From: Alphaproteobacteria bacterium
Lineage (GTDB): Bacteria; Pseudomonadota; Alphaproteobacteria; MPNO01
Assembly (NCBI GenBank): GCA_965117055.1
Contig: OZ220750.1
Coordinates: 3,501,440-3,565,439, forward strand
Direction: 5' to 3'
DNA length: 64,000 nucleotides
Shown here: in pieces, positions 2-8,308 of the stretch
Layout of the letters: each line of letters starts with the position of its first letter
How positions within the stretch are numbered: the stretch's first letter is position 1
Program-made: the position numbers and the translations under genes
Notes under the pieces: model-generated
What the model saw: only the letters and a program-made list of their open reading frames with translations
Database searches by the model: none
What the model was told of the DNA's origin: nothing

Positions 2-3000
2 GACTCCGATGCGGTGTCGGCGAGCACGTTGGCCGCCGTGAACCCCGCCACCGGCGTCACGGCGTCGAATGCGACACCGACATCGGTCGATCTTGCGTGG
101 GCGCTTCCTGCACAGCCCGTGGGCGTGACGGTGACCAGGGTTCTGCTGCTACAGCAGGTGGTGGGCGATTCTCGGACCAAGATTGTGCCACTCGCGGCCG
201 ACGCGACCTCGCACACGGTGACGGGGCTAAGCGCCAACACGTCGTACAGCTTCCGCATCGAGATCGTTACGAGCAGCGGGAGCGCGGAGTCGGATGCGGT
301 CTTGGCCGACACGCTGGTGGCGCCGAATGCCGCCACCGGGCTCACGGCGTCGAACGTGACGTATACGACGGTCGACCTATCGTGGACGTTGCCCGAGCAG
401 CCCGAGGGCGTGACCGTGAGCGCGGTGGAGGTGGTCCAGTTACTTGACTACGGGGAGGAAGCCACGGTGGCGACGCTTGCTGCCGACGTGATGTCGTACA
501 AGGTCACGGAACTGGCTGCCGGTACGGATCACTTCTTCCGTATCCGCCTTGTCACCAACAGAGGGACCGCACTTACGCTGGCGGTGAGCGCATCCACGTT
601 GGCGGGTCCGAATCCGCCCACGAACTTCACCGCATCGAACGAGACGGAAACGACGGTCGACCTCGCGTGGACGTTTCCCGCACAGCCCGACGGCGTGACT
701 GTGACCGGCGTTGAGGTACGCCAGGAAAAGGCAAACCCATACGTGGTGGATGAACACCTTACTCGCCCCACAACGACGGTGGCGACGCTTGCTGCCGACG
801 CAACCTCGTACACGGTGACGGGGCTGACCGAGGTAAGGCGCTACACCTATCGCATCCGGCTCATCACCAACGGCCAAGGGCATGCGGATTCGCAGCCCGT
901 GACCATCTCGAAAATCCCTAATCCAAGACCGCCGACCGGACTCGCAGCGTCGAACGCAACATCGTCGACGGTCGACCTCTCGTGGACGCTGCCCGAGCAG
1001 CCCGAGGGCGTAAGCGTACGCGGCATCAGGGTATGGCAGGAGGTGGATCAGGAACCCGAACCACGGCCGTCATCATCCCACTCACCAACGGCGTTTGATT
1101 TTCCACATACCGCATGGCTGTCATCAACGATGCTTGGTGCCGACACGACCTCGCACACGGTGACGGGACTGACACCGGAGACGGAATACCGTTTCAAAAT
1201 TTCGCTCGACCTGGATATCGACGGCGCCACGAATGTCGACGGCGGGGGCCCGGCTAACAGATGGTCGAAGCCGGTGGGGGTGACCACGCTGGCGGCCGCG
1301 GACCCCGCCACCGGGCTCACGGCGTCGAACCCGACGCAGACCACGGTCGATCTCGCGTGGACGTTGCCTACGCAGGCCACGGGTGTGACCGTTACCAGCG
1401 TTGAGGTGCAGCAGCAGGCGGCGGACCAGTCCTGGACCACTGCCGCGACGCTCGCCTCCGACGCGACCTCGCACACGGTGACAGGGCTGACCGCAGGGAC
1501 GTCGTACACTTTCCGCATTCGGCTCGTCACGAGCAGCGGGAACGCGGACTCCGAGCCTGTCGAGACGCAAACCTTGCAGACGCTGCTCGAGGCGAAGATG
1601 GCGGGCAGCGTGCCGCCGGCGCAGGGAAGAGATGGCCTGGAGTTTTCACTGTCCCGCTCGACAGGTGGTCGACCTGGCGGCTGCGCGGTTGAGGTGACGG
1701 TGGAGTTCCTCGACGAGGACGGCACCGCGGTTGCGGTGAATGGGCTGGCGGCCTCGGACTTCACGGCGGAGAACGGGCGCGTGGGCACGCCGGTGGCGGC
1801 CGCCGACGGCCTGTCCTGGATGGTGCCGGTGCGGGCGACGACGGACAGGCGGGGCTTCCTGCGCGTGCGCCTGCCGGCGACGGAGCGCTGGCGCGCGGAC
1901 GAGCAGGTGTTCCACAATCGCGGCGCCGGGGTGTGCGCGCCGGCCGCGCGCTGGGAGCTCGCGGACCTGCGGCTCTACGACCTTCGAATCTCCCCGAGCT
2001 TCAGAAGCACCACGACGGAGTACACGGATGAGACCATGGATGCGGACGCGGAGGTGGTGGCCGAGGCGGTCTACGCCGACGCGACGGTGACCATCGCGCC
2101 GGCCGACGCGGACGAGGACACCGACGGCCACCAGGTGGCGTTGCCGGTGGGCGAGACCGAGGTGACGGTCACGGTGACGCCCGGGGACGGCAGCGCGGCG
2201 CAGACCTACACGGTGGCGGTGACCCGCGAGGCGGCGGTGCGCGCGCTGACCGGCTTCGTGCTGGTGGACGCCTCGACGGACACGGACCTGGGCGCGGTGG
2301 AGAGCGGCGCCACGGTGACGGTGGCGCCGGGCGGCTCCTACGGCATCCGCGCGGAAGTCGACGAGGACGCGGAGGTGGGCAGCGTGACGCTGATGCTGCG
2401 CGGCCCGGGCGCGGACGGCGCGGAGCACAAGCAGACCGAGAACGCCGCGCCCTACTCGCTCTACGGCGATGCGGGGGGCGCCGAGCACGGCCGGGCGCTG
2501 GCGGCGGGGTCGTACATGCTGACGGCGACGGCGTACTCGGACCGGTACGGCGCGGGCCGGCTGCTGAACACGCTGGTCCGGCGGTTCAAGGTGGCGGAGG
2601 ATGCGGCGGCGCCGCCCTCCGCGGGGGTGCTGACCGGCTTCACGCTGGTCGACGTGTCGGACCAGTCGACGGTGGCGGCGCTCGTGGACGGCGCCGAGGT
2701 GGACCTCGGCGCGCGCTTCGCCGGGAGCTTCGGCATCCGGGCCGAGGTCGCGCCGAACGCGGCGGTGGGCAGCGTGGCGCTGTCGCTGTCGGGCGCGAAG
2801 ACGGTGTCGCGGAGGGAGAACATCGCGCCGTATTCGCTGTGGGGCGACGTGAACCGCGGGGCCGGCTCGGCGCTCCACGGCGAGGCGCTGCCGGCGGGGT
2901 CGTACACGCTGACGGCGACGGCCTATGCCGAGCGCCGCGCCAAGGGCGCGGTGCGGGGGACGCTCTCGGTGTCGTTCGACATCCTCAGCCCCCCGGCGCT

Positions 3001-4936
3001 CTCGGTGGCGGACGCGAGCGCCGAGGAAGGGACCGACGCGGCGCTGGAATTCGCGGTGACGCTCGACCGCGAGGCGGCGCATACGGTGACGGTGGCCTAT
3101 GCCACGTCGGACGGGACGGCGACGGCGGGGTCGGACTACACGGCGACCTCGGGCACGCTGAGCTTCGCCCCGGGCGAGGTGGAGAAGACGGTTTCGGTGC
3201 CGGTGCTGGTGGACGATGTCGACGAGGGCAGCGAGACGCTGACGCTGCGGCTTTCGAGCCCCTCGGGGGCGGTCATCGCGGACGGCGAGGCGACGGGCAC
3301 CATCACCAACGACGGTCCGATCCCCGAGGCGTGGCTGGCGCGCTTCGGTCGCACGGTGACGGGGCAGGTGCTCGACGCGGTCGAGGCGCGTCTGGCGGCG
3401 CCGCGCGAGGCGGGGGCGCAAGCCGCCCTCGCCGGCCAGGCGCTGCCGTCCTGGCGCGCGGACGGCCCGGCCGGGTCGGACACCAGGGCAGCGGCCAAGG
3501 CGGAGCAGGCCGAGTTGGAAGACCGCGCGGCGCTGGCGTCGATGACCGCGTGGCTGACACAGGCCGGGCGTGATCCCGGAAGGGTGTCCGGGGCAGGCGG
3601 CCAGGGCACGGCCTGGTTCGGAGCGGCTGGCGACGGGATGGGACGCGAGAAAGAGTCTCGAGCGCTGACGCACCGCGACCTGATGGTCGGCACGTCGTTT
3701 GCACTGACCGGCGGGTCGGCGGAGGGCGGCGGCTTCGCCTCGCTGTGGGGCCGGGGCTCGATCGCGGGCTTCGACGGGCGCGAGGGCGCGCTCACGGTGG
3801 ACGGCGAGGTCACCACCGGCCTGATTGGCGCCGACTGGGCGAGCGCTCCGGGGTCCGGGGCAGGCCGCTGGACGGCGGGACTTGCGCTCGGGCACTCCAC
3901 CGGCACGGGCGGTTGGCGCCGGGGCGGCGGCTGCGACCCCAACTGCGGCGGCAGCATCGACGCGGTGCTGACCGGCCTCTACCCCTATGCGGGGATCGAC
4001 CTGACGGAGCGCCTCACGCTGTGGGCGGCGGCCGGCTATGGCGCGGGCGAGGTGACGGTGACGCCGAAGGGCGAGCCCGGCCTGACCGCGGACCTCTCCA
4101 TGTCGATGGGCGCGGCCGGGCTGCGTAGCAAGGTGCTGCAGCCGGAAGACGGCGACGGCCTGGCGCTCGCGGTCAAGGGCGACGCCCGCTTCACCCGGAC
4201 GTCCTCGGACGCGGCGCGGGGCGAGGGCGGAAACCTGGCGGCCGCCGAGGCGGACGTGTGGCTGCTGCGCACCGGCGTCGAGGGCTCGCGGCGCTTCGCG
4301 CTGGGTCGTGCGGATAAGGGCGCGAGCGTGACGCCTTCGTTCGAGCTGGGCGTGCGGCGCGACGGCGGCGACGCGGAGACCGGCATGGGCGCGGACCTGG
4401 GCGGCGGGATTGCGTTTGCCGACCCGAAGAACGGCGTTGCGCTGGACATGAAGGCGCGGGGCCTGGTGGCGCACGAGTCGAAGGGCTTCCGGGAGTGGGG
4501 CGCGAGCCTCGCGGCCTCCTGGGATCCGCGGCCCACCACCGACCGGGGGTTGTCGCTCACGCTGCGCCAGAGCTGGGGCGCCTCGCCCTCCGGCGGCATG
4601 GACGCGCTGCTGAGCCGGGAAACGCTGGCGGGCCTCGCGGCGAACGACCCCGGATCGGGGTCCGGGGCAGGCGGGAAGTTCGAGGCGTCGAGCCGGCTGG
4701 AGGGCGAGATCGGCTATGGGCTGCCTGCGTTCGGCGGCGCCTTCACAAGCACGCCGAACGGCGGCTTCGGGCTGTCGGACGGCGGGGCGCGGGAGTGGCG
4801 CCTCGGCTGGCGCCTGACCTCGGCGATCAGGGGCGATCCCGGCTTCGAAGTCAGCCTGGATGCGACCCGCAGCGAGCCCGCCAATGACGAAGAGCCCGAG
4901 CACGGGGTGACGCTGAAGGCCGCGATCCGCTGGTAG
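2..4936 (+). CDS. Autotransporter adhesin, 5'-partial, with FN3-like repeats, a Calx-beta-like module and a C-terminal beta-barrel translocator
   Basis: The reading frame is open from base 2, so the gene starts upstream of the window. At least six ~110-aa repeats carry TTVDLSW(T/A)LP..P.GVTV and SYTVTGL.....Y.FRIR motifs (FN3-like). A Calx-beta-like segment reads DGTATAGSDY..TSGTLSFAPGE..KTVSVPV..D. The C-terminal ~300 aa is Gly/Ala-rich beta-strand sequence ending in the aromatic terminal motif ...TLKAAIRW. Confidence 0.85.
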   Translation, partial: DSDAVSASTLAAVNPATGVTASNATPTSVDLAWALPAQPVGVTVTRVLLLQQVVGDSRTKIVPLAADATSHTVTGLSANTSYSFRIEIVTSSGSAESDAVLADTLVAPNAATGLTASNVTYTTVDLSWTLPEQPEGVTVSAVEVVQLLDYGEEATVATLAADVMSYKVTELAAGTDHFFRIRLVTNRGTALTLAVSASTLAGPNPPTNFTASNETETTVDLAWTFPAQPDGVTVTGVEVRQEKANPYVVDEHLTRPTTTVATLAADATSYTVTGLTEVRRYTYRIRLITNGQGHADSQPVTISKIPNPRPPTGLAASNATSSTVDLSWTLPEQPEGVSVRGIRVWQEVDQEPEPRPSSSHSPTAFDFPHTAWLSSTMLGADTTSHTVTGLTPETEYRFKISLDLDIDGATNVDGGGPANRWSKPVGVTTLAAADPATGLTASNPTQTTVDLAWTLPTQATGVTVTSVEVQQQAADQSWTTAATLASDATSHTVTGLTAGTSYTFRIRLVTSSGNADSEPVETQTLQTLLEAKMAGSVPPAQGRDGLEFSLSRSTGGRPGGCAVEVTVEFLDEDGTAVAVNGLAASDFTAENGRVGTPVAAADGLSWMVPVRATTDRRGFLRVRLPATERWRADEQVFHNRGAGVCAPAARWELADLRLYDLRISPSFRSTTTEYTDETMDADAEVVAEAVYADATVTIAPADADEDTDGHQVALPVGETEVTVTVTPGDGSAAQTYTVAVTREAAVRALTGFVLVDASTDTDLGAVESGATVTVAPGGSYGIRAEVDEDAEVGSVTLMLRGPGADGAEHKQTENAAPYSLYGDAGGAEHGRALAAGSYMLTATAYSDRYGAGRLLNTLVRRFKVAEDAAAPPSAGVLTGFTLVDVSDQSTVAALVDGAEVDLGARFAGSFGIRAEVAPNAAVGSVALSLSGAKTVSRRENIAPYSLWGDVNRGAGSALHGEALPAGSYTLTATAYAERRAKGAVRGTLSVSFDILSPPALSVADASAEEGTDAALEFAVTLDREAAHTVTVAYATSDGTATAGSDYTATSGTLSFAPGEVEKTVSVPVLVDDVDEGSETLTLRLSSPSGAVIADGEATGTITNDGPIPEAWLARFGRTVTGQVLDAVEARLAAPREAGAQAALAGQALPSWRADGPAGSDTRAAAKAEQAELEDRAALASMTAWLTQAGRDPGRVSGAGGQGTAWFGAAGDGMGREKESRALTHRDLMVGTSFALTGGSAEGGGFASLWGRGSIAGFDGREGALTVDGEVTTGLIGADWASAPGSGAGRWTAGLALGHSTGTGGWRRGGGCDPNCGGSIDAVLTGLYPYAGIDLTERLTLWAAAGYGAGEVTVTPKGEPGLTADLSMSMGAAGLRSKVLQPEDGDGLALAVKGDARFTRTSSDAARGEGGNLAAAEADVWLLRTGVEGSRRFALGRADKGASVTPSFELGVRRDGGDAETGMGADLGGGIAFADPKNGVALDMKARGLVAHESKGFREWGASLAASWDPRPTTDRGLSLTLRQSWGASPSGGMDALLSRETLAGLAANDPGSGSGAGGKFEASSRLEGEIGYGLPAFGGAFTSTPNGGFGLSDGGAREWRLGWRLTSAIRGDPGFEVSLDATRSEPANDEEPEHGVTLKAAIRW
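14..1560 (+). repeat. Tandem ~330-bp coding repeats (FN3-like modules) inside the adhesin gene
   Basis: Recurrent DNA and protein blocks (gtcgatctcgcgtgg.../TTVDL[AS]W) occur with a period of about 110 codons. Confidence 0.6.
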
Positions 4937-5022: not shown

Positions 5023-5556
5023 ATGCGCACGGAGGACGGTCCGCGGGCGTGGCAGATACTCCGGCGCCTCCCGGCCTACCGTGCGGCCTGGCGCCGGCGG
5101 CGGCCCCAGCCGGGCCTGCCCGAGCCCGCGCCCTTCCCGGTCCGGCTGCAGACCGCTTCCGACCTCGCCGCCGCGCGCTTCGGCATCCTCGCCTGGGAGG
5201 ACCCCTTCGCCGAGGACGGGCCGGCCTCGCCCTTCTGGCGCGTTGCGCCGGCATTGCCTGCGGCGGTCGGGCCGCGGGCGACGCCGCTGATCGGCGAAGC
5301 GGCAGCGGCCGGGCTCGCCGTCTCGGGCCTCAGGCTCGCCGACGGCAGCCTGGCGCTCAAGCTGGAGCGCGGCGACCGGGCGATTCAGCTGTCGGTCGGG
5401 CCGGGGACCGGCTTCGGGCCCGGCGACGGGGTGCTGGCATTGCACGACCTGCTGGAGGAGCCGCGGCTGTTCGTCGCCCGGCTGCGCGAGGCGCGGGCGC
5501 TTGCGGCCGGGCCGGCCCCTCCGGGGGGCGGGGGTCGGGGGATGCGGAATTGCTGA
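5023..5556 (+). CDS. DUF6499-like N-terminal part of a putative frameshift-fused ICE transcriptional activator (FseA-like)
   Basis: It carries a W..LRR.PAYRAAWRRR motif. The ORF ends at TGA 5554-5556, just after a G-rich tract at 5521-5541. The overlapping frame continues into a DUF2285-like C-terminus. Confidence 0.5.
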   Translation: MRTEDGPRAWQILRRLPAYRAAWRRRRPQPGLPEPAPFPVRLQTASDLAAARFGILAWEDPFAEDGPASPFWRVAPALPAAVGPRATPLIGEAAAAGLAVSGLRLADGSLALKLERGDRAIQLSVGPGTGFGPGDGVLALHDLLEEPRLFVARLREARALAAGPAPPGGGGRGMRNC

Positions 5557-5756
5557 AGGCGGTGGAGGGGCTGGCGGCGAAGAAGAAGCTGCCGCAGATC
5601 GCGCTCGACGTCTACGGAGCGGACAAGGTCGCGGACAGGGGGCTGCACTCCGACGGCGACCTGCGCGCCGCGGCGCGCCGTCTGGTCAGGAAGGCGCGCT
5701 TCCTGATGAAGGGCGGCTATCTCGACCTCGCCGCCGGGCGCCGCCCCCGCCTCTGA
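5538..5756 (+). CDS. DUF2285-like C-terminal part, in the -1 frame relative to 5023-5556
   Basis: The alternate frame reads ...GDAELLKAVEGLAAKKKLPQIALDVYGADKVADRGLHSDGDLRAAARRLVRKARFLMKGGYLDLAAGR and stops at 5756. Upstream in this frame there is only GC-rich, protein-unlike sequence, so the segment probably depends on the upstream ORF for translation. Confidence 0.45.
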   Translation, partial: GDAELLKAVEGLAAKKKLPQIALDVYGADKVADRGLHSDGDLRAAARRLVRKARFLMKGGYLDLAAGRRPRL

Positions 5757-6099
5757 CTCCGGCGCGCCGCGGCCGCCGGCGCGGTTCTCCCGTCGGGTCC
5801 TCCCGGAACGCCGCCGCGGGACGCGAGCCGCCCGCGCCGCTGCACACGCAGGATCTGTTCGACTCCGCGCCGTGCGGGACGACGACTCCGGACGCCATCT
5901 CCCGCCCCCGCCGGTCATGCGCCAGTCGCCGTCCGGCGGTGTGCGGCGGCGCGGGTCGCCGTCTGCGGGGGACGGTCTCGCGATTCTGAAATCGTCCCTC
6001 CCGGCGCCCTCCCTTCTCCGCTTCGATGGCCCCGATCGCGACCCGGCGCGGGCCGGGCGCAGGCGCCCCGCCCCGGGGCGGCGGAGAAAGGGAAACGCG
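5757..6099 (+). promoter_or_regulatory. Intergenic region upstream of the HTH gene and the tra operon, a likely promoter/operator
   Basis: It is a 340-bp non-coding gap between the regulator module and the first gene of the co-directional T4SS operon. Confidence 0.3.
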
Positions 6100-6321
6100 A
6101 TGACCGGGACGATCTATCTCAACACGCGCGAGGCGGCGGCCCATCTGGGACTGTCGACGCGCACGCTGGACCGCTACCGGGTGTCGGGCGACGGGCCGGT
6201 GTTCCTGAAGTTCGGCGGAAGGGTGCGCTATCTGCGCGAGGACCTGGACGACTGGGCCAGGACCAGGCGGCGCAAGTCGACTTCGGACGACGGCACGGCG
6301 CTCGACGGAGCGGGCCGGTGA
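6100..6321 (+). CDS. AlpA/MerR-like helix-turn-helix DNA-binding protein in the TraY/TraJ position
   Basis: It starts MTGTIYLNTREAAAHLGLSTRTLDRYRVSGDGPVFLKFGGRVRYLREDLDDWA, a typical excisionase/AlpA-family HTH. The ATG at 6100 is preceded by GGAGAAAGGGAAA, and the stop overlaps the next start (ATGA). Confidence 0.7.
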   Translation: MTGTIYLNTREAAAHLGLSTRTLDRYRVSGDGPVFLKFGGRVRYLREDLDDWARTRRRKSTSDDGTALDGAGR

Positions 6322-6646: not shown

Positions 6647-6940
6647 ATGAACGACACCGCCCGCCATACCATCCCGCGCCGGCTGGACGATCCGGAGCGC
6701 TGGCTGTTCTGGACCGTCGACGAGGCGGCGGCCCTGATGGGTCCGGCCCTGCTCGGCCTGGCCGCGAACCAGTTCGTGCCGGGGCTGGTCGCCGGCGTGG
6801 GCGGCTGGCTGCTGCTGCGCCGGGTCAAGCGGGGCGGCGGCGCCAACATCGCGCGCTACGCCCTCTACTGGTTCCTGCCGGACTTCGTGCTGCGACTGAA
6901 GGCGACGCCGCCCTCCCACCTCCGGCGCTTCGTCGGCTGA
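6647..6940 (+). CDS. traL: TraL-like T4SS protein
   Basis: It is 97 aa (F TraL is 91 aa) with a hydrophobic core, in the position after the pilin gene. Confidence 0.55.
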   Translation: MNDTARHTIPRRLDDPERWLFWTVDEAAALMGPALLGLAANQFVPGLVAGVGGWLLLRRVKRGGGANIARYALYWFLPDFVLRLKATPPSHLRRFVG

Positions 6941-6950
6941 GGCGGGAACG

Positions 6951-7523
6951 ATGCGGCGCATCGAAATGGACTCCGCCTTCCGCCGGGTGCGGGACGTCCG
7001 CCTGGCGCTGGCCGGGCTGCTGGTGTTGTCGATGGTGGCGAACCTGGCGCTCACCATGAGCTTCGCCGGGCGCGAGACCGTCACCGTGCTGGTGCCGGCC
7101 ACGGCGGGACCCGCCTGGGAAATCGCCGGCGGCGGCGCCGGCACGGGGCTGGCCCGGGCGCGGTATCTCGAAGACATGGCGCGCACGGTGGCCGTCACGC
7201 TGCTGACGCTGACGCCCGAGAACGCGAGCCACGTCCGTCTCGCGTCGGCGCGGATGAGCCACGCGTCGGCGCGCGGTGCGATCGGCGCCTGGGTCGAGGC
7301 CGAGGCCGCCCGCCTGGCCGGGCGCGACATGGCGAGCGCCTTCTATCCGCAAGAGATCGAGGCCGATCCCGAACGGCTCCGCGTCGAGATCGCGGGCGAG
7401 CTGGTGACCTGGATCGGCCGCGAGGAGTCCTCCCGCGAGGACCGGCGCTACCGGCTCGCCTTCCGCATCGACGCGGGACGGATCGGGCTGCTGCGCTTCG
7501 AACAGATGGAGAGTGGAAAATGA
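6951..7523 (+). CDS. traE: TraE-like T4SS protein
   Basis: It is 190 aa (F TraE is 188 aa) with an N-terminal TM segment (LALAGLLVLSMVANLAL), in the expected position. Confidence 0.6.
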   Translation: MRRIEMDSAFRRVRDVRLALAGLLVLSMVANLALTMSFAGRETVTVLVPATAGPAWEIAGGGAGTGLARARYLEDMARTVAVTLLTLTPENASHVRLASARMSHASARGAIGAWVEAEAARLAGRDMASAFYPQEIEADPERLRVEIAGELVTWIGREESSREDRRYRLAFRIDAGRIGLLRFEQMESGK

Positions 7524-8308
7524 CACATACCCTCCAGAGGCACGCGCTGGCGGCGCTGGCTGCCGCACTCCTCGTCTGCATCGGCGCTATTGCGGCGCCG
7601 GGGTCCGCGCTGGCGATGCAGGTCCTCGACGCGACCGACCATGCCGAGCTGGCGGCGGAAATCTCCGCCACCAACGTGAACCGGATCGCATTGGCGGGCG
7701 ACCGGATCGCGAAGGTGGTGCGCGCGCCGGACGGATATGCGGTCGAGCACGACGCCACCTCGGGCGACCTCTATCTGCGGCCCCTGGCACCGGCCTCTTC
7801 CGGAGATGCGGCGGGCGAACCGGTCACGCTGTTCATCGGCACCGAGAAGGGGTTCACCTACCGGCTGACCCTGACCCCGGCCGCCAGGGACTCGGCGCAG
7901 ATCCTGATCCGCAACGGCGAGACCCTGCCGAACGTCGCGAAGCGCAGGATCGGCGCCAGGGACAGCGCGCGCATTGCGGCGCTGATGCGGCTGGTGCGCG
8001 CCGTTGCCCGGCGGGAGCCGCTGCCCGGCCACGAAATCCGGGCGGCCACCGGTCCCGAGCTCGTCGGATTGACTTTCATCGAGACCTGGCGGGGTCCGCG
8101 CTTCTCGGCGCATGTCCTGGAAGCGGACCGCGATGTGCCGGAAGCCGCGCGCCTCGCCGGGACCATCGAGGGGCTCCCCGGCGTCGGGCGCACCGCGGAC
8201 GGCGCCCGTCTCGCTGCGCTCTGGCTGGCGGCGCCCGGCACCGGCCCCTCGGGCGGCCGTCTCGCCGTGGCTGTCGTGGAAACCGCCCCGGCGGGAGAGC
8301 CGCGATGA
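7520..8308 (+). CDS. traK: TraK-like (VirB9/secretin-like) T4SS protein
   Basis: It is 262 aa with a signal peptide and overlaps its neighbours by 4 nt, in the expected position. Confidence 0.6.
   Translation: MTHTLQRHALAALAAALLVCIGAIAAPGSALAMQVLDATDHAELAAEISATNVNRIALAGDRIAKVVRAPDGYAVEHDATSGDLYLRPLAPASSGDAAGEPVTLFIGTEKGFTYRLTLTPAARDSAQILIRNGETLPNVAKRRIGARDSARIAALMRLVRAVARREPLPGHEIRAATGPELVGLTFIETWRGPRFSAHVLEADRDVPEAARLAGTIEGLPGVGRTADGARLAALWLAAPGTGPSGGRLAVAVVETAPAGEPR

Follow-up and report, generated by a model that had tools for sequence, protein, structure and literature searches.

A conserved, probable -1 recoding architecture at short homopolymer runs in an FseA/RovC-family regulator of a conjugative element

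FseA is a well-studied mobile-element case in which ribosomal frameshifting keeps a transfer activator scarce. In ICEMlSymR7A, FseA (Msi172-Msi171) results from +1 programmed ribosomal frameshifting (PRF) at a UUUC that lies close to the 3' end of msi172 and adjoins the WGL motif (encoded UGGGGG) (PMC4755241, PMC10359603). The shift, preceded by a G-rich element, has an efficiency of 4-13% (PMC4755241), and the +1 site is present in about 61% of 4,709 FseA homologues (PMC4755241, PMC10359603); the 2023 census of these homologues left out environmental whole-genome shotgun sequences (PMC10359603). For shifts in the opposite direction, the minimal site is accepted to be Z_ZZN, GG_GGG is established as a stimulator of the internal Shine-Dalgarno (SD) kind, and low-level frameshifting on G-runs has been documented for herpes simplex virus thymidine kinase (PMC5009743). 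Here we analyzed a 64,000-nucleotide (nt) stretch of contig OZ220750.1 of an Alphaproteobacteria bacterium, hereafter the window, which contains a regulator of the FseA/RovC family at positions 5023 to 5756, upstream of conjugation genes. A sequence-only reading had proposed that the two halves of this regulator require a -1 frame change within a poly-G tract. The comparative evidence described below supports this proposal and indicates that a conserved -1 recoding architecture in this regulator of a conjugative element is real. We found no description of a -1 or second-site shift in the FseA/RovC family in the literature searched.

The first open reading frame (ORF1) runs from ATG to TGA and encodes 177 amino acids (aa) with the C-terminal end ...PPGGGGRGMRNC*. 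In the -1 frame, no stop occurs between 4917 and the TGA at 5754-5756, and the translation reads ...SGGRGSGDAELLKAVEGL...VRKARFLMKGGYLDLAAGRRPRL. The suggestion that this frame continues ORF1 to 5756 with a DUF2285-like part held up, as the -1-frame part scored 38.6 bits with the Pfam profile RovC_DNA-bd (PF10074, the former DUF2285; cutoff 26.4), and in the conceptual fusion the match ran across the junction (profile positions 26-106). A G-rich run, CCGGGGGGCGGGGGTCGGGGG, lies at 5521-5541 between the body of ORF1 and the DUF2285 domain. ORF1 had been described as ending 30 nt after this run, which needs correction, because 12 nt separate the tract from the stop codon (5554-5556). The DUF6499 (PF20109) match on ORF1 was sub-threshold (14.6 bits vs a cutoff of 23.8), the motif AW.[FI]LRR (RAWQILRRLPAY) is present, and the relatives P0060, P0068, P0069 and P0072 carry PF20109. 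No NCBIfam model matched either ORF1 or the DUF2285 half. Without a shift, ORF1 is predicted to yield a 177-aa product lacking the DNA-binding domain.

No protein other than RovC (PDB 6XZ5) matched significantly, whether by sequence (E = 0.0045, collinear at both ends) or by fold (E = 6.6e-05 over 242 aligned columns), residues 15-82 of RovC aligning to residues 9-74 of the regulator. The DUF6499-like and DUF2285 parts become collinear with RovC and with single-ORF homologues only after a conceptual -1 shift. In an AlphaFold2 model from 27 sequences, which was of moderate confidence (predicted local distance difference test, pLDDT, 63.6) and was used for domain and helix boundaries only, the DUF2285 domain reached a pLDDT of 80-87, and the linker that holds the G-tract (residues 156-171) was disordered.

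A protein search with the fused sequence recovered about 58 close relatives with 60-99% identity, nearly all of them 177-179 aa long and ending in ...GGGR[GA]xxxC*. Only one of these, P0001 (246 aa, 77% identity), was fused. A distant group with 40-47% identity consisted of single ORFs of 240-244 aa that carry PF10074 with or without PF20109, and the conceptual fusion aligned to them unbroken across the junction, as the proposed fusion of the two halves had led one to expect. Along the in-frame homologues (APRSARMRADRELL, APPNGGRKIDRELL), homology to frame 0 (P-R-x-G-R-x-R-G) extends up to the last G-run, and homology to frame -1 (D-x-E-L-L) starts from the last G-run onward. We further gathered the DNA of 108 related loci (L numbers) from genome, metagenome and assembly collections, of which a scan of Joint Genome Institute (JGI) metagenomes gave 17, and mapped the N-terminal and DUF2285 parts by two hidden Markov models (HMMs). 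Relative to ORF1, the DUF2285 frame was -1 in 84 of 94 gene copies, +1 in six and in frame in four. All -1 copies are split at the same linker position, and they stem both from numerous short-read contigs (MEGAHIT, SPAdes, JGI) and from metagenome-assembled genomes (MAGs) apparently built from long reads. The independently assembled, 95%-identical locus L108 shows the same split with identical second and third G-runs. The sole in-frame member of the window's clade, L098/P0001, has a 7-nt insertion in the tract and an unaltered run length. Such recurrence of one -1 split, in 84 of 94 copies, makes a programmed ribosomal slip the most likely source of the full-length protein.

Six copies (L029, L031, L032, L036, L038 and L035) need a +1 (or -2) change instead, and the second run of L035 is one G shorter than that of the -1 copy L063 (GGGCGGGTC vs GGGGCGGGGTC); homopolymer errors in long reads, decay of the copies or genuine +1 variation could each account for these six. 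Locus L098 carries tandem copies, a -1 split copy of a distant sub-family (5296-5982) followed by the in-frame P0001 (6001-6741). Many split-regulator copies occur per MAG, with at least six on the 5.3-Mb contig CBDDOM010000002.1 (loci L029, L047, L053, L058, L059 and L066), which implies many related mobile elements per genome. The names of the MAGs (jk18x, p16x, SB0673 bins, OX... locus tags) suggest sponge-associated Alpha- and Gammaproteobacteria. A tblastn search against 72,556 plasmids, made for cultured or plasmid-borne relatives, returned none; similarity to plasmid-borne relatives lies below what tblastn can detect.

To compare selection on the two halves, pairwise ratios of nonsynonymous to synonymous substitution rates (dN/dS) were calculated by the Nei-Gojobori method with a purpose-written script. 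For the N-terminal part in frame 0, dN/dS was 0.34 in the close clade and 0.31 in a large sub-family. For the C-terminal part, frame -1 gave 0.41 in the close clade and 0.46 in this sub-family, whose DUF2285 part has no start codon, and the same bases read in frame 0 gave 1.18 and 1.06, respectively. Thus both halves are under purifying selection at a dS of about 0.6, and the DUF2285 part is so in frame -1 only. Consistently, in a sliding analysis of the 15-sequence close-clade alignment, the synonymous fraction was largest for frame 0 as far as about 5500 and for frame -1 beyond about 5532, with the crossing at about 5520-5532.

How the DUF2285 part can be reached was then constrained by its start codons. 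In 39 of the 75 distinct -1 copies, the DUF2285 frame lacks any ATG, GTG or TTG from -45 to +15 nt of the first Leu of D-x-E-L-L, and in these 39 copies the frame-0 stop lies 130-310 nt downstream. With no start codon and a distant frame-0 stop, separate initiation or stop-start coupling is impossible in these copies. As the DUF2285 part of the start-less copies is nevertheless under purifying selection, it can ordinarily be reached only if the frame changes during expression.

The junction is also marked by homopolymers throughout the family. A run of at least five identical bases within 45 nt upstream of ELL was present in 70 of the 75 distinct -1 copies (93%), compared with 5.4% of 992 equal-sized tiles from the same genes; for G-runs alone, the values were 79% of junctions and 3% of background tiles. 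The junction arrangement is therefore far from chance. Depending on the sub-family, the equivalent linker position holds G5-6, A6, C5 or C7, including AAAAAA that is invariably phased AAA_AAA_G (L034, L045, L046, L052, L056 and L067), CGG_GGG_AAA_AAA (L024), C_CCC_CCC (L060) and TCC_CCC_GGG (L039, L043, L048 and L076). In four copies, stops in both frames bound the shift zone to 25-64 nt, and each of these zones contains a run; the zone of L046, just 25 nt long, has AAAAAA and no other run.

Within the window's tract, substitution patterns located the frame change. The heptamer G_GGG_GGC in the first G-run (5523-5529) had been put forward as the slippery site, and it is indeed in the correct phase for X_XXY_YYZ. 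The frame overlap itself is conserved among relatives, but the heptamer is not: the position reads CCGCGGGGC in L108 and CGGCGGGGC or ATCGGGGGC in other clade members, and it is also broken in L001 and L002. This heptamer was rejected as the shift site since it is specific to the window; of the first run only GGGG (5525-5528) is conserved. Unlike the first run, G-runs 2 (5530-5534) and 3 (5537-5541) are conserved, as the elements GGG_GGN (5530-5535) and CGG_GGG_A (5536-5542), and the frame-0 consensus in the clade is GGC GGG GGN CGG G[G/C]G A. Base 5535 (T/A/G) varies synonymously only in frame 0 (GGN), and bases 5540 (G/C) and 5543 (T/C) are synonymous only in frame -1 (GGG/GGC and GAT/GAC, respectively), which puts the change of frame at roughly 5532-5541. 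At least one G5-6 run is intact in each member of the clade: L099, L102 and L104 have run 2 beside a disrupted run 3, and L106 has run 3 beside a disrupted run 2. This suggests that the G_GGN sites are redundant. The conserved GGGG sits 8-9 nt upstream of G_GGG and, at 9 nt from G_GGG at 5538-5541, may serve as an internal SD-like stimulator.

Constraint on the tract exceeds what coding alone needs. The motif CCCTCG-N3-GGGG-C-GGG-NN-CGGGGG-A was found over 55 copies from several sub-families, and of 59 copies with CGGGGG, 55 have it in the phase CGG_GGG. At 5518-5520, 52 of the 55 copies use CCT, a rare codon that makes up 3% of Pro codons in these genes. We observed that CCCUC(G) at 5517-5522 is the complement of CGGGGG (5536-5541), 13 nt downstream, with one G·U pair, and that it also resembles the 16S anti-SD sequence; both arms are invariant. 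The CCCUC(G) stretch might form a hairpin or compete for the G-runs. In sub-families other than the window's, the first Leu of ELL is the rare codon CTT (6.9% overall) in 32 of 69 copies. The codon bias at the first Leu points to nucleotide-level constraint 14-23 nt downstream of CGGGGG.

The conserved -1 architecture, the selection on both halves, the lack of start codons in many copies and the constraint on the tract follow directly from the data. For the slip codon, its SD-like stimulation, the efficiency of the shift and the regulatory target, we infer the following course of events. The activator would consist of a DUF6499-like domain, a middle domain, a disordered linker and a DUF2285 helix-turn-helix (HTH), with this DNA-binding domain lying in the -1 frame. 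The majority of ribosomes would end at the ORF1 stop, and a minority would slip by -1 within GGG_GGT_CGG_GGG_A. In the likely event, peptidyl-tRNA-Gly would re-pair on Z_ZZN at G_GGT (5532-5535) and/or G_GGG (5538-5541), possibly aided by pairing of the upstream GGGG with the 16S anti-SD sequence. Translation would then proceed through GDAELL... to 5756 to give a protein of about 244 aa, with the predicted junction peptide ...APPGGGGSGDAELLK for a slip at GGT or ...APPGGGGRGDAELLK for a slip at the third run. By analogy with FseA, the scarce full-length product would bind the inverted repeat at 5969-5998 and activate the downstream HTH_17 gene and the tra operon, and such a low-yield activator would trigger conjugative transfer only rarely. 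The fused product made by frameshifting is probably the functional activator.

Several points weigh against a ribosomal -1 slip in this tract. No conserved in-phase X_XXY_YYZ heptamer was found in the family, in which only the minimal Z_ZZN (G_GGN) is conserved, and neither G-run 2 nor G-run 3 is strictly universal. To our knowledge, G-runs are not among the well-characterized efficient bacterial -1 shift sites. A conserved downstream stimulatory RNA was rejected, since RNAalifold on 12 clade members found no covarying downstream structure (covariation term +0.32, invariant pairs only) and Rfam gave no match at E up to 1. The trans-frame product is a prediction from sequence, and ribosomal and transcriptional slippage leave identical genomic signatures (PMC5009743). 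Finally, the window's clade has a conspicuous codon usage at the junction. In its 15 sequences, the first Leu of ELL is encoded by TTG (11) or ATG (2), and the second Leu by TTG or ATG in 10, although TTG makes up 5.8% of Leu codons in these genes. The SD-like GGGGGA lies 7 nt upstream of the TTG, and the ORF1 stop is at +4 in most clade members. On these grounds, TTG/ATG in the window's clade looks like a selected internal start.

This codon usage is what a genuine split in the window's clade would predict, with ORF1 and a stand-alone DUF2285 protein of about 69 aa made separately. The small protein would start at TTG 5550 (ATG in some relatives) behind the SD GGGGGA, with translational coupling at TTGCTGA, and would either assemble non-covalently with ORF1 or act as a QseM-like antiactivator; such a split could coexist with frameshifting. 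Gene callers likewise give separate ORFs of 64-78 aa, and QseM is a stand-alone DUF2285 protein that binds DUF6499 (PMC10359603). Several observations oppose separate initiation. In the wider family, the 39 of 75 copies without a start codon or nearby stop show the same selection on the domain, and within the clade L005 has no start codon at the first Leu and L107 has no nearby ORF1 stop. In the AlphaFold2 model, helix 1 of DUF2285 begins at G173/D174, upstream of Leu177, the residue encoded by TTG, so that D174, conserved in at least 90% of full-length homologues, and the start of the helix are encoded upstream of the TTG in the window. Correspondingly, G173, D174 and [DE]176 are conserved as amino acids in helix 1 and vary synonymously (GGG/GGC, GAT/GAC), and 3 of 15 sequences have GGGCGA, a change that is synonymous in frame -1 yet makes the putative SD weaker. 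Moreover, the tract motif is common to the window's clade and the start-less sub-family, and the 2023 study reported no bona fide DUF6499 domain unjoined to DUF2285 (PMC10359603). The alternative of a genuinely split gene, which the sequence-only reading had raised, thus does not account for most of the family and stays plausible in the window's clade, where an independently started protein of about 69 aa, perhaps made beside the fusion, would fit the junction codons. As the full explanation for the clade, we consider a genuine split unlikely.

A combination, in which three products arise from one overlap, is in our view distinctly unlikely. It would comprise the 177-aa protein, a TTG/ATG-started DUF2285 protein acting as a QseM-like antiactivator or partner, and a rare full-length activator from the -1 slip. 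If it were true, the locus would encode an activator together with its own antagonist, with recoding efficiency setting the transfer switch, and it would represent a second recoding site in the same regulator family, evolved independently and in the opposite direction. No second DUF2285 or QseM-like copy was detectable by our HMMs within the window. Separately, L103 has a stand-alone 95-aa DUF2285 (PF10074) ORF at 4093-4380, downstream of the split regulator and beside RelE/HTH_3-type toxin-antitoxin genes, which is a possible QseM-like antiactivator.

Correction at the RNA level would act earlier: RNA polymerase would slip on the G-, A- or C-run, a fraction of transcripts would gain or lose a base, and normal translation into the fusion would follow. 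A homopolymer at the junction in every sub-family is a hallmark of transcriptional slippage too. However, the sites at which bacterial RNA polymerase is known to slip are typically A or T stretches of at least about 8-9 nt, and the runs here are short (5-6 nt, with 7 in L060). The interchangeable G-runs 2 and 3 and the conserved GGGG spacing fit the ribosomal model better, and transcriptional slippage is accordingly very unlikely.

It is scarcely credible that the split is an artefact or a sign of decay, whether an indel introduced at a homopolymer during sequencing or assembly, a phase-variable tract in its OFF state, or a pseudogene. Long-read data are error-prone at G-rich homopolymers, many loci come from apparently long-read MAGs, and the in-frame P0001/L098, the six copies needing +1 and the single G between L035 and L063 could be read in this light. 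The -1 state in 84 of 94 copies, many short-read assemblies included, and the split of L108, with runs 2 and 3 equal in length, nevertheless disposed of the indel once proposed as an alternative. In addition, the in-frame clade member is explained by its 7-nt insertion and not by a run-length change, run lengths are constant among close relatives, contrary to expectation for phase variation, and both halves are under purifying selection at the dS given above. Sequencing error, phase variation and a pseudogene were therefore rejected, the split being reproducible and both halves selected.

The features of the locus are collected in Table 1. The regulator stands, as anticipated, upstream of an HTH gene and of tra genes, and this regulator/HTH_17/tra synteny recurs in L099, L100, L107 and L108. 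Between the regulator and the HTH_17 gene, a 30-nt inverted repeat is nearly invariant in six elements (the window, L100, L107, L099, L001 and L081), whose flanking intergenic DNA has diverged. This repeat is a candidate operator for the regulator, by analogy with the FseA box upstream of PrdfS (PMC10359603). A second conserved block with GTGCGGGACGACGACTCC was seen about 100 nt upstream of the repeat. On its upstream side, the regulator adjoins a giant repetitive surface-protein gene (14-4936, + strand; ORF of 1640 aa), which is also found upstream in L100, L102, L104 and L108. Its relatives carry fn3, Cadherin-like, Calx-beta, SWM_repeat and SRCR domains, and the C-terminal 478 aa of the window's protein had no Pfam match.

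Table 1 Features of the split regulator and its neighborhood in the window (coordinates refer to the window)
Feature	Coordinates	Strand	Evidence or remark
ORF1: DUF6499-like N-terminal part (RAWQILRRLPAY), middle domain, linker and 5-codon out-of-frame tail	5023-5556	+	N-part HMM 269.8
Invariant CCCTC(C/G) just 5' of the G-runs	5517-5522	+	Multi-sub-family alignment
First G-run with heptamer G_GGG_GGC; only GGGG 5525-5528 conserved	5523-5529	+	Clade alignment
Conserved recoding tract GGG_GGT_CGG_GGG_A (G-runs 2 and 3), proposed tRNA-Gly slip zone	5530-5542	+	Substitution patterns
DUF2285/RovC_DNA-bd extended-turn HTH in frame -1, GDAELLKAVEGL...GRRPRL, stop TGA 5754-5756	5538-5756	+	PF10074 38.6 bits, dN/dS, pLDDT
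TTGCTGA: possible internal start TTG 5550-5552 (frame -1) overlapping the ORF1 stop	5550-5556	+	SD-like GGGGGA 5537-5542, 7 nt upstream
Inverted repeat, 30 nt, GGGACGGTCTCGCGATTCTGAAATCGTCCC (also written GGGACGGTCTCGCGAWTCYGAAATCGTCCC)	5969-5998	+	About 100 nt upstream of the HTH_17 gene
HTH_17 gene (excisionase/RdfS-like), presumed activation target	6100-6321	+	PF12728, 45.4 bits
TraL	6647-6940	+	Conjugation gene
TraE	6951-7523	+	Conjugation gene
TraK	7520-8308	+	Conjugation gene
TrbI/TraB-like gene	After TraK, ends 9591	+	Conjugation cluster

If the -1 slip operates as proposed, a sister clade without the +1 site would have its break elsewhere and in the -1 direction, on G-, A- or C-runs by sub-clade, which would speak against a historical accident and for low-yield recoding having been selected repeatedly. 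Shifting by -1 on glycine G-runs, for which natural examples are few, would also gain a natural bacterial case. In practice, annotation of these genes is systematically wrong, giving a 177-aa hypothetical protein and a DUF2285 ORF of 64-78 aa with an arbitrary start. The MAG-borne clade was probably missed by the 2023 FseA census because environmental sequences were left out there.

Among the systems with which the locus can be compared, RovC of Yersinia is the only solved relative and is a single chain collinear with both ends of the fusion. In contrast to the window's regulator, it is encoded by a single ORF without recoding and controls a type VI secretion system; the two share about 18% identity, and confidence in the structural comparison is low (model pLDDT 63.6, template modeling score 0.37-0.40). 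With the -1 PRF of dnaX and IS3-family elements, the window's family shares the -1 direction, an SD-like element about 9-10 nt upstream and, if the proposed shift occurs, a second product per mRNA, and its sister sub-families use A-runs. It differs from them in having no conserved X_XXY_YYZ, in the phase of its A-run copies, which is AAA_AAA_G and not A_AAA_AAG, in the lack of support for a downstream hairpin or pseudoknot, and in the proposed single-tRNA Z_ZZN slip on Gly codons. Herpes simplex thymidine kinase likewise shows low-level frame correction during decoding of a G-run (PMC5009743), which there rescues a mutant allele in a eukaryotic virus and is not a conserved, selected architecture.

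The closest parallel is FseA. Both regulators have the layout of a DUF6499 part (DUF6499-like in the window, with the AW..LRR motif), a middle domain and a DUF2285 extended-turn HTH, and both are encoded upstream of an excisionase-like HTH gene on a conjugative element. FseA requires, and the window's regulator probably requires, a frame change for the active protein, with a G-rich SD-like element just upstream of the shift site, and in both cases recoded and single-ORF relatives are mixed (PMC4755241, PMC10359603). Nevertheless, the FseA precedent invoked for this site did not carry over to the position or direction of the shift. FseA shifts by +1 on UUUC after WGL at the end of DUF6499, whereas the window has no +1 UUUC/WGL site and reads straight through RFGILAWEDP to about residue 170. 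The break in the window goes in the -1 direction and comes some 110 codons later, within the linker that leads to DUF2285, on homopolymers (G5-6, with A6 and C5-7 in sisters). Correspondingly, ORF1 of the window comprises the DUF6499-like part and the middle domain, whereas the first ORF of FseA is DUF6499 alone; quorum-sensing genes and a QseM gene, which belong to the FseA system, were not identified in the window. The regulator family and its regulatory logic are thus those known from FseA, and the site, the direction and the slippery sequence set the window's regulator apart.

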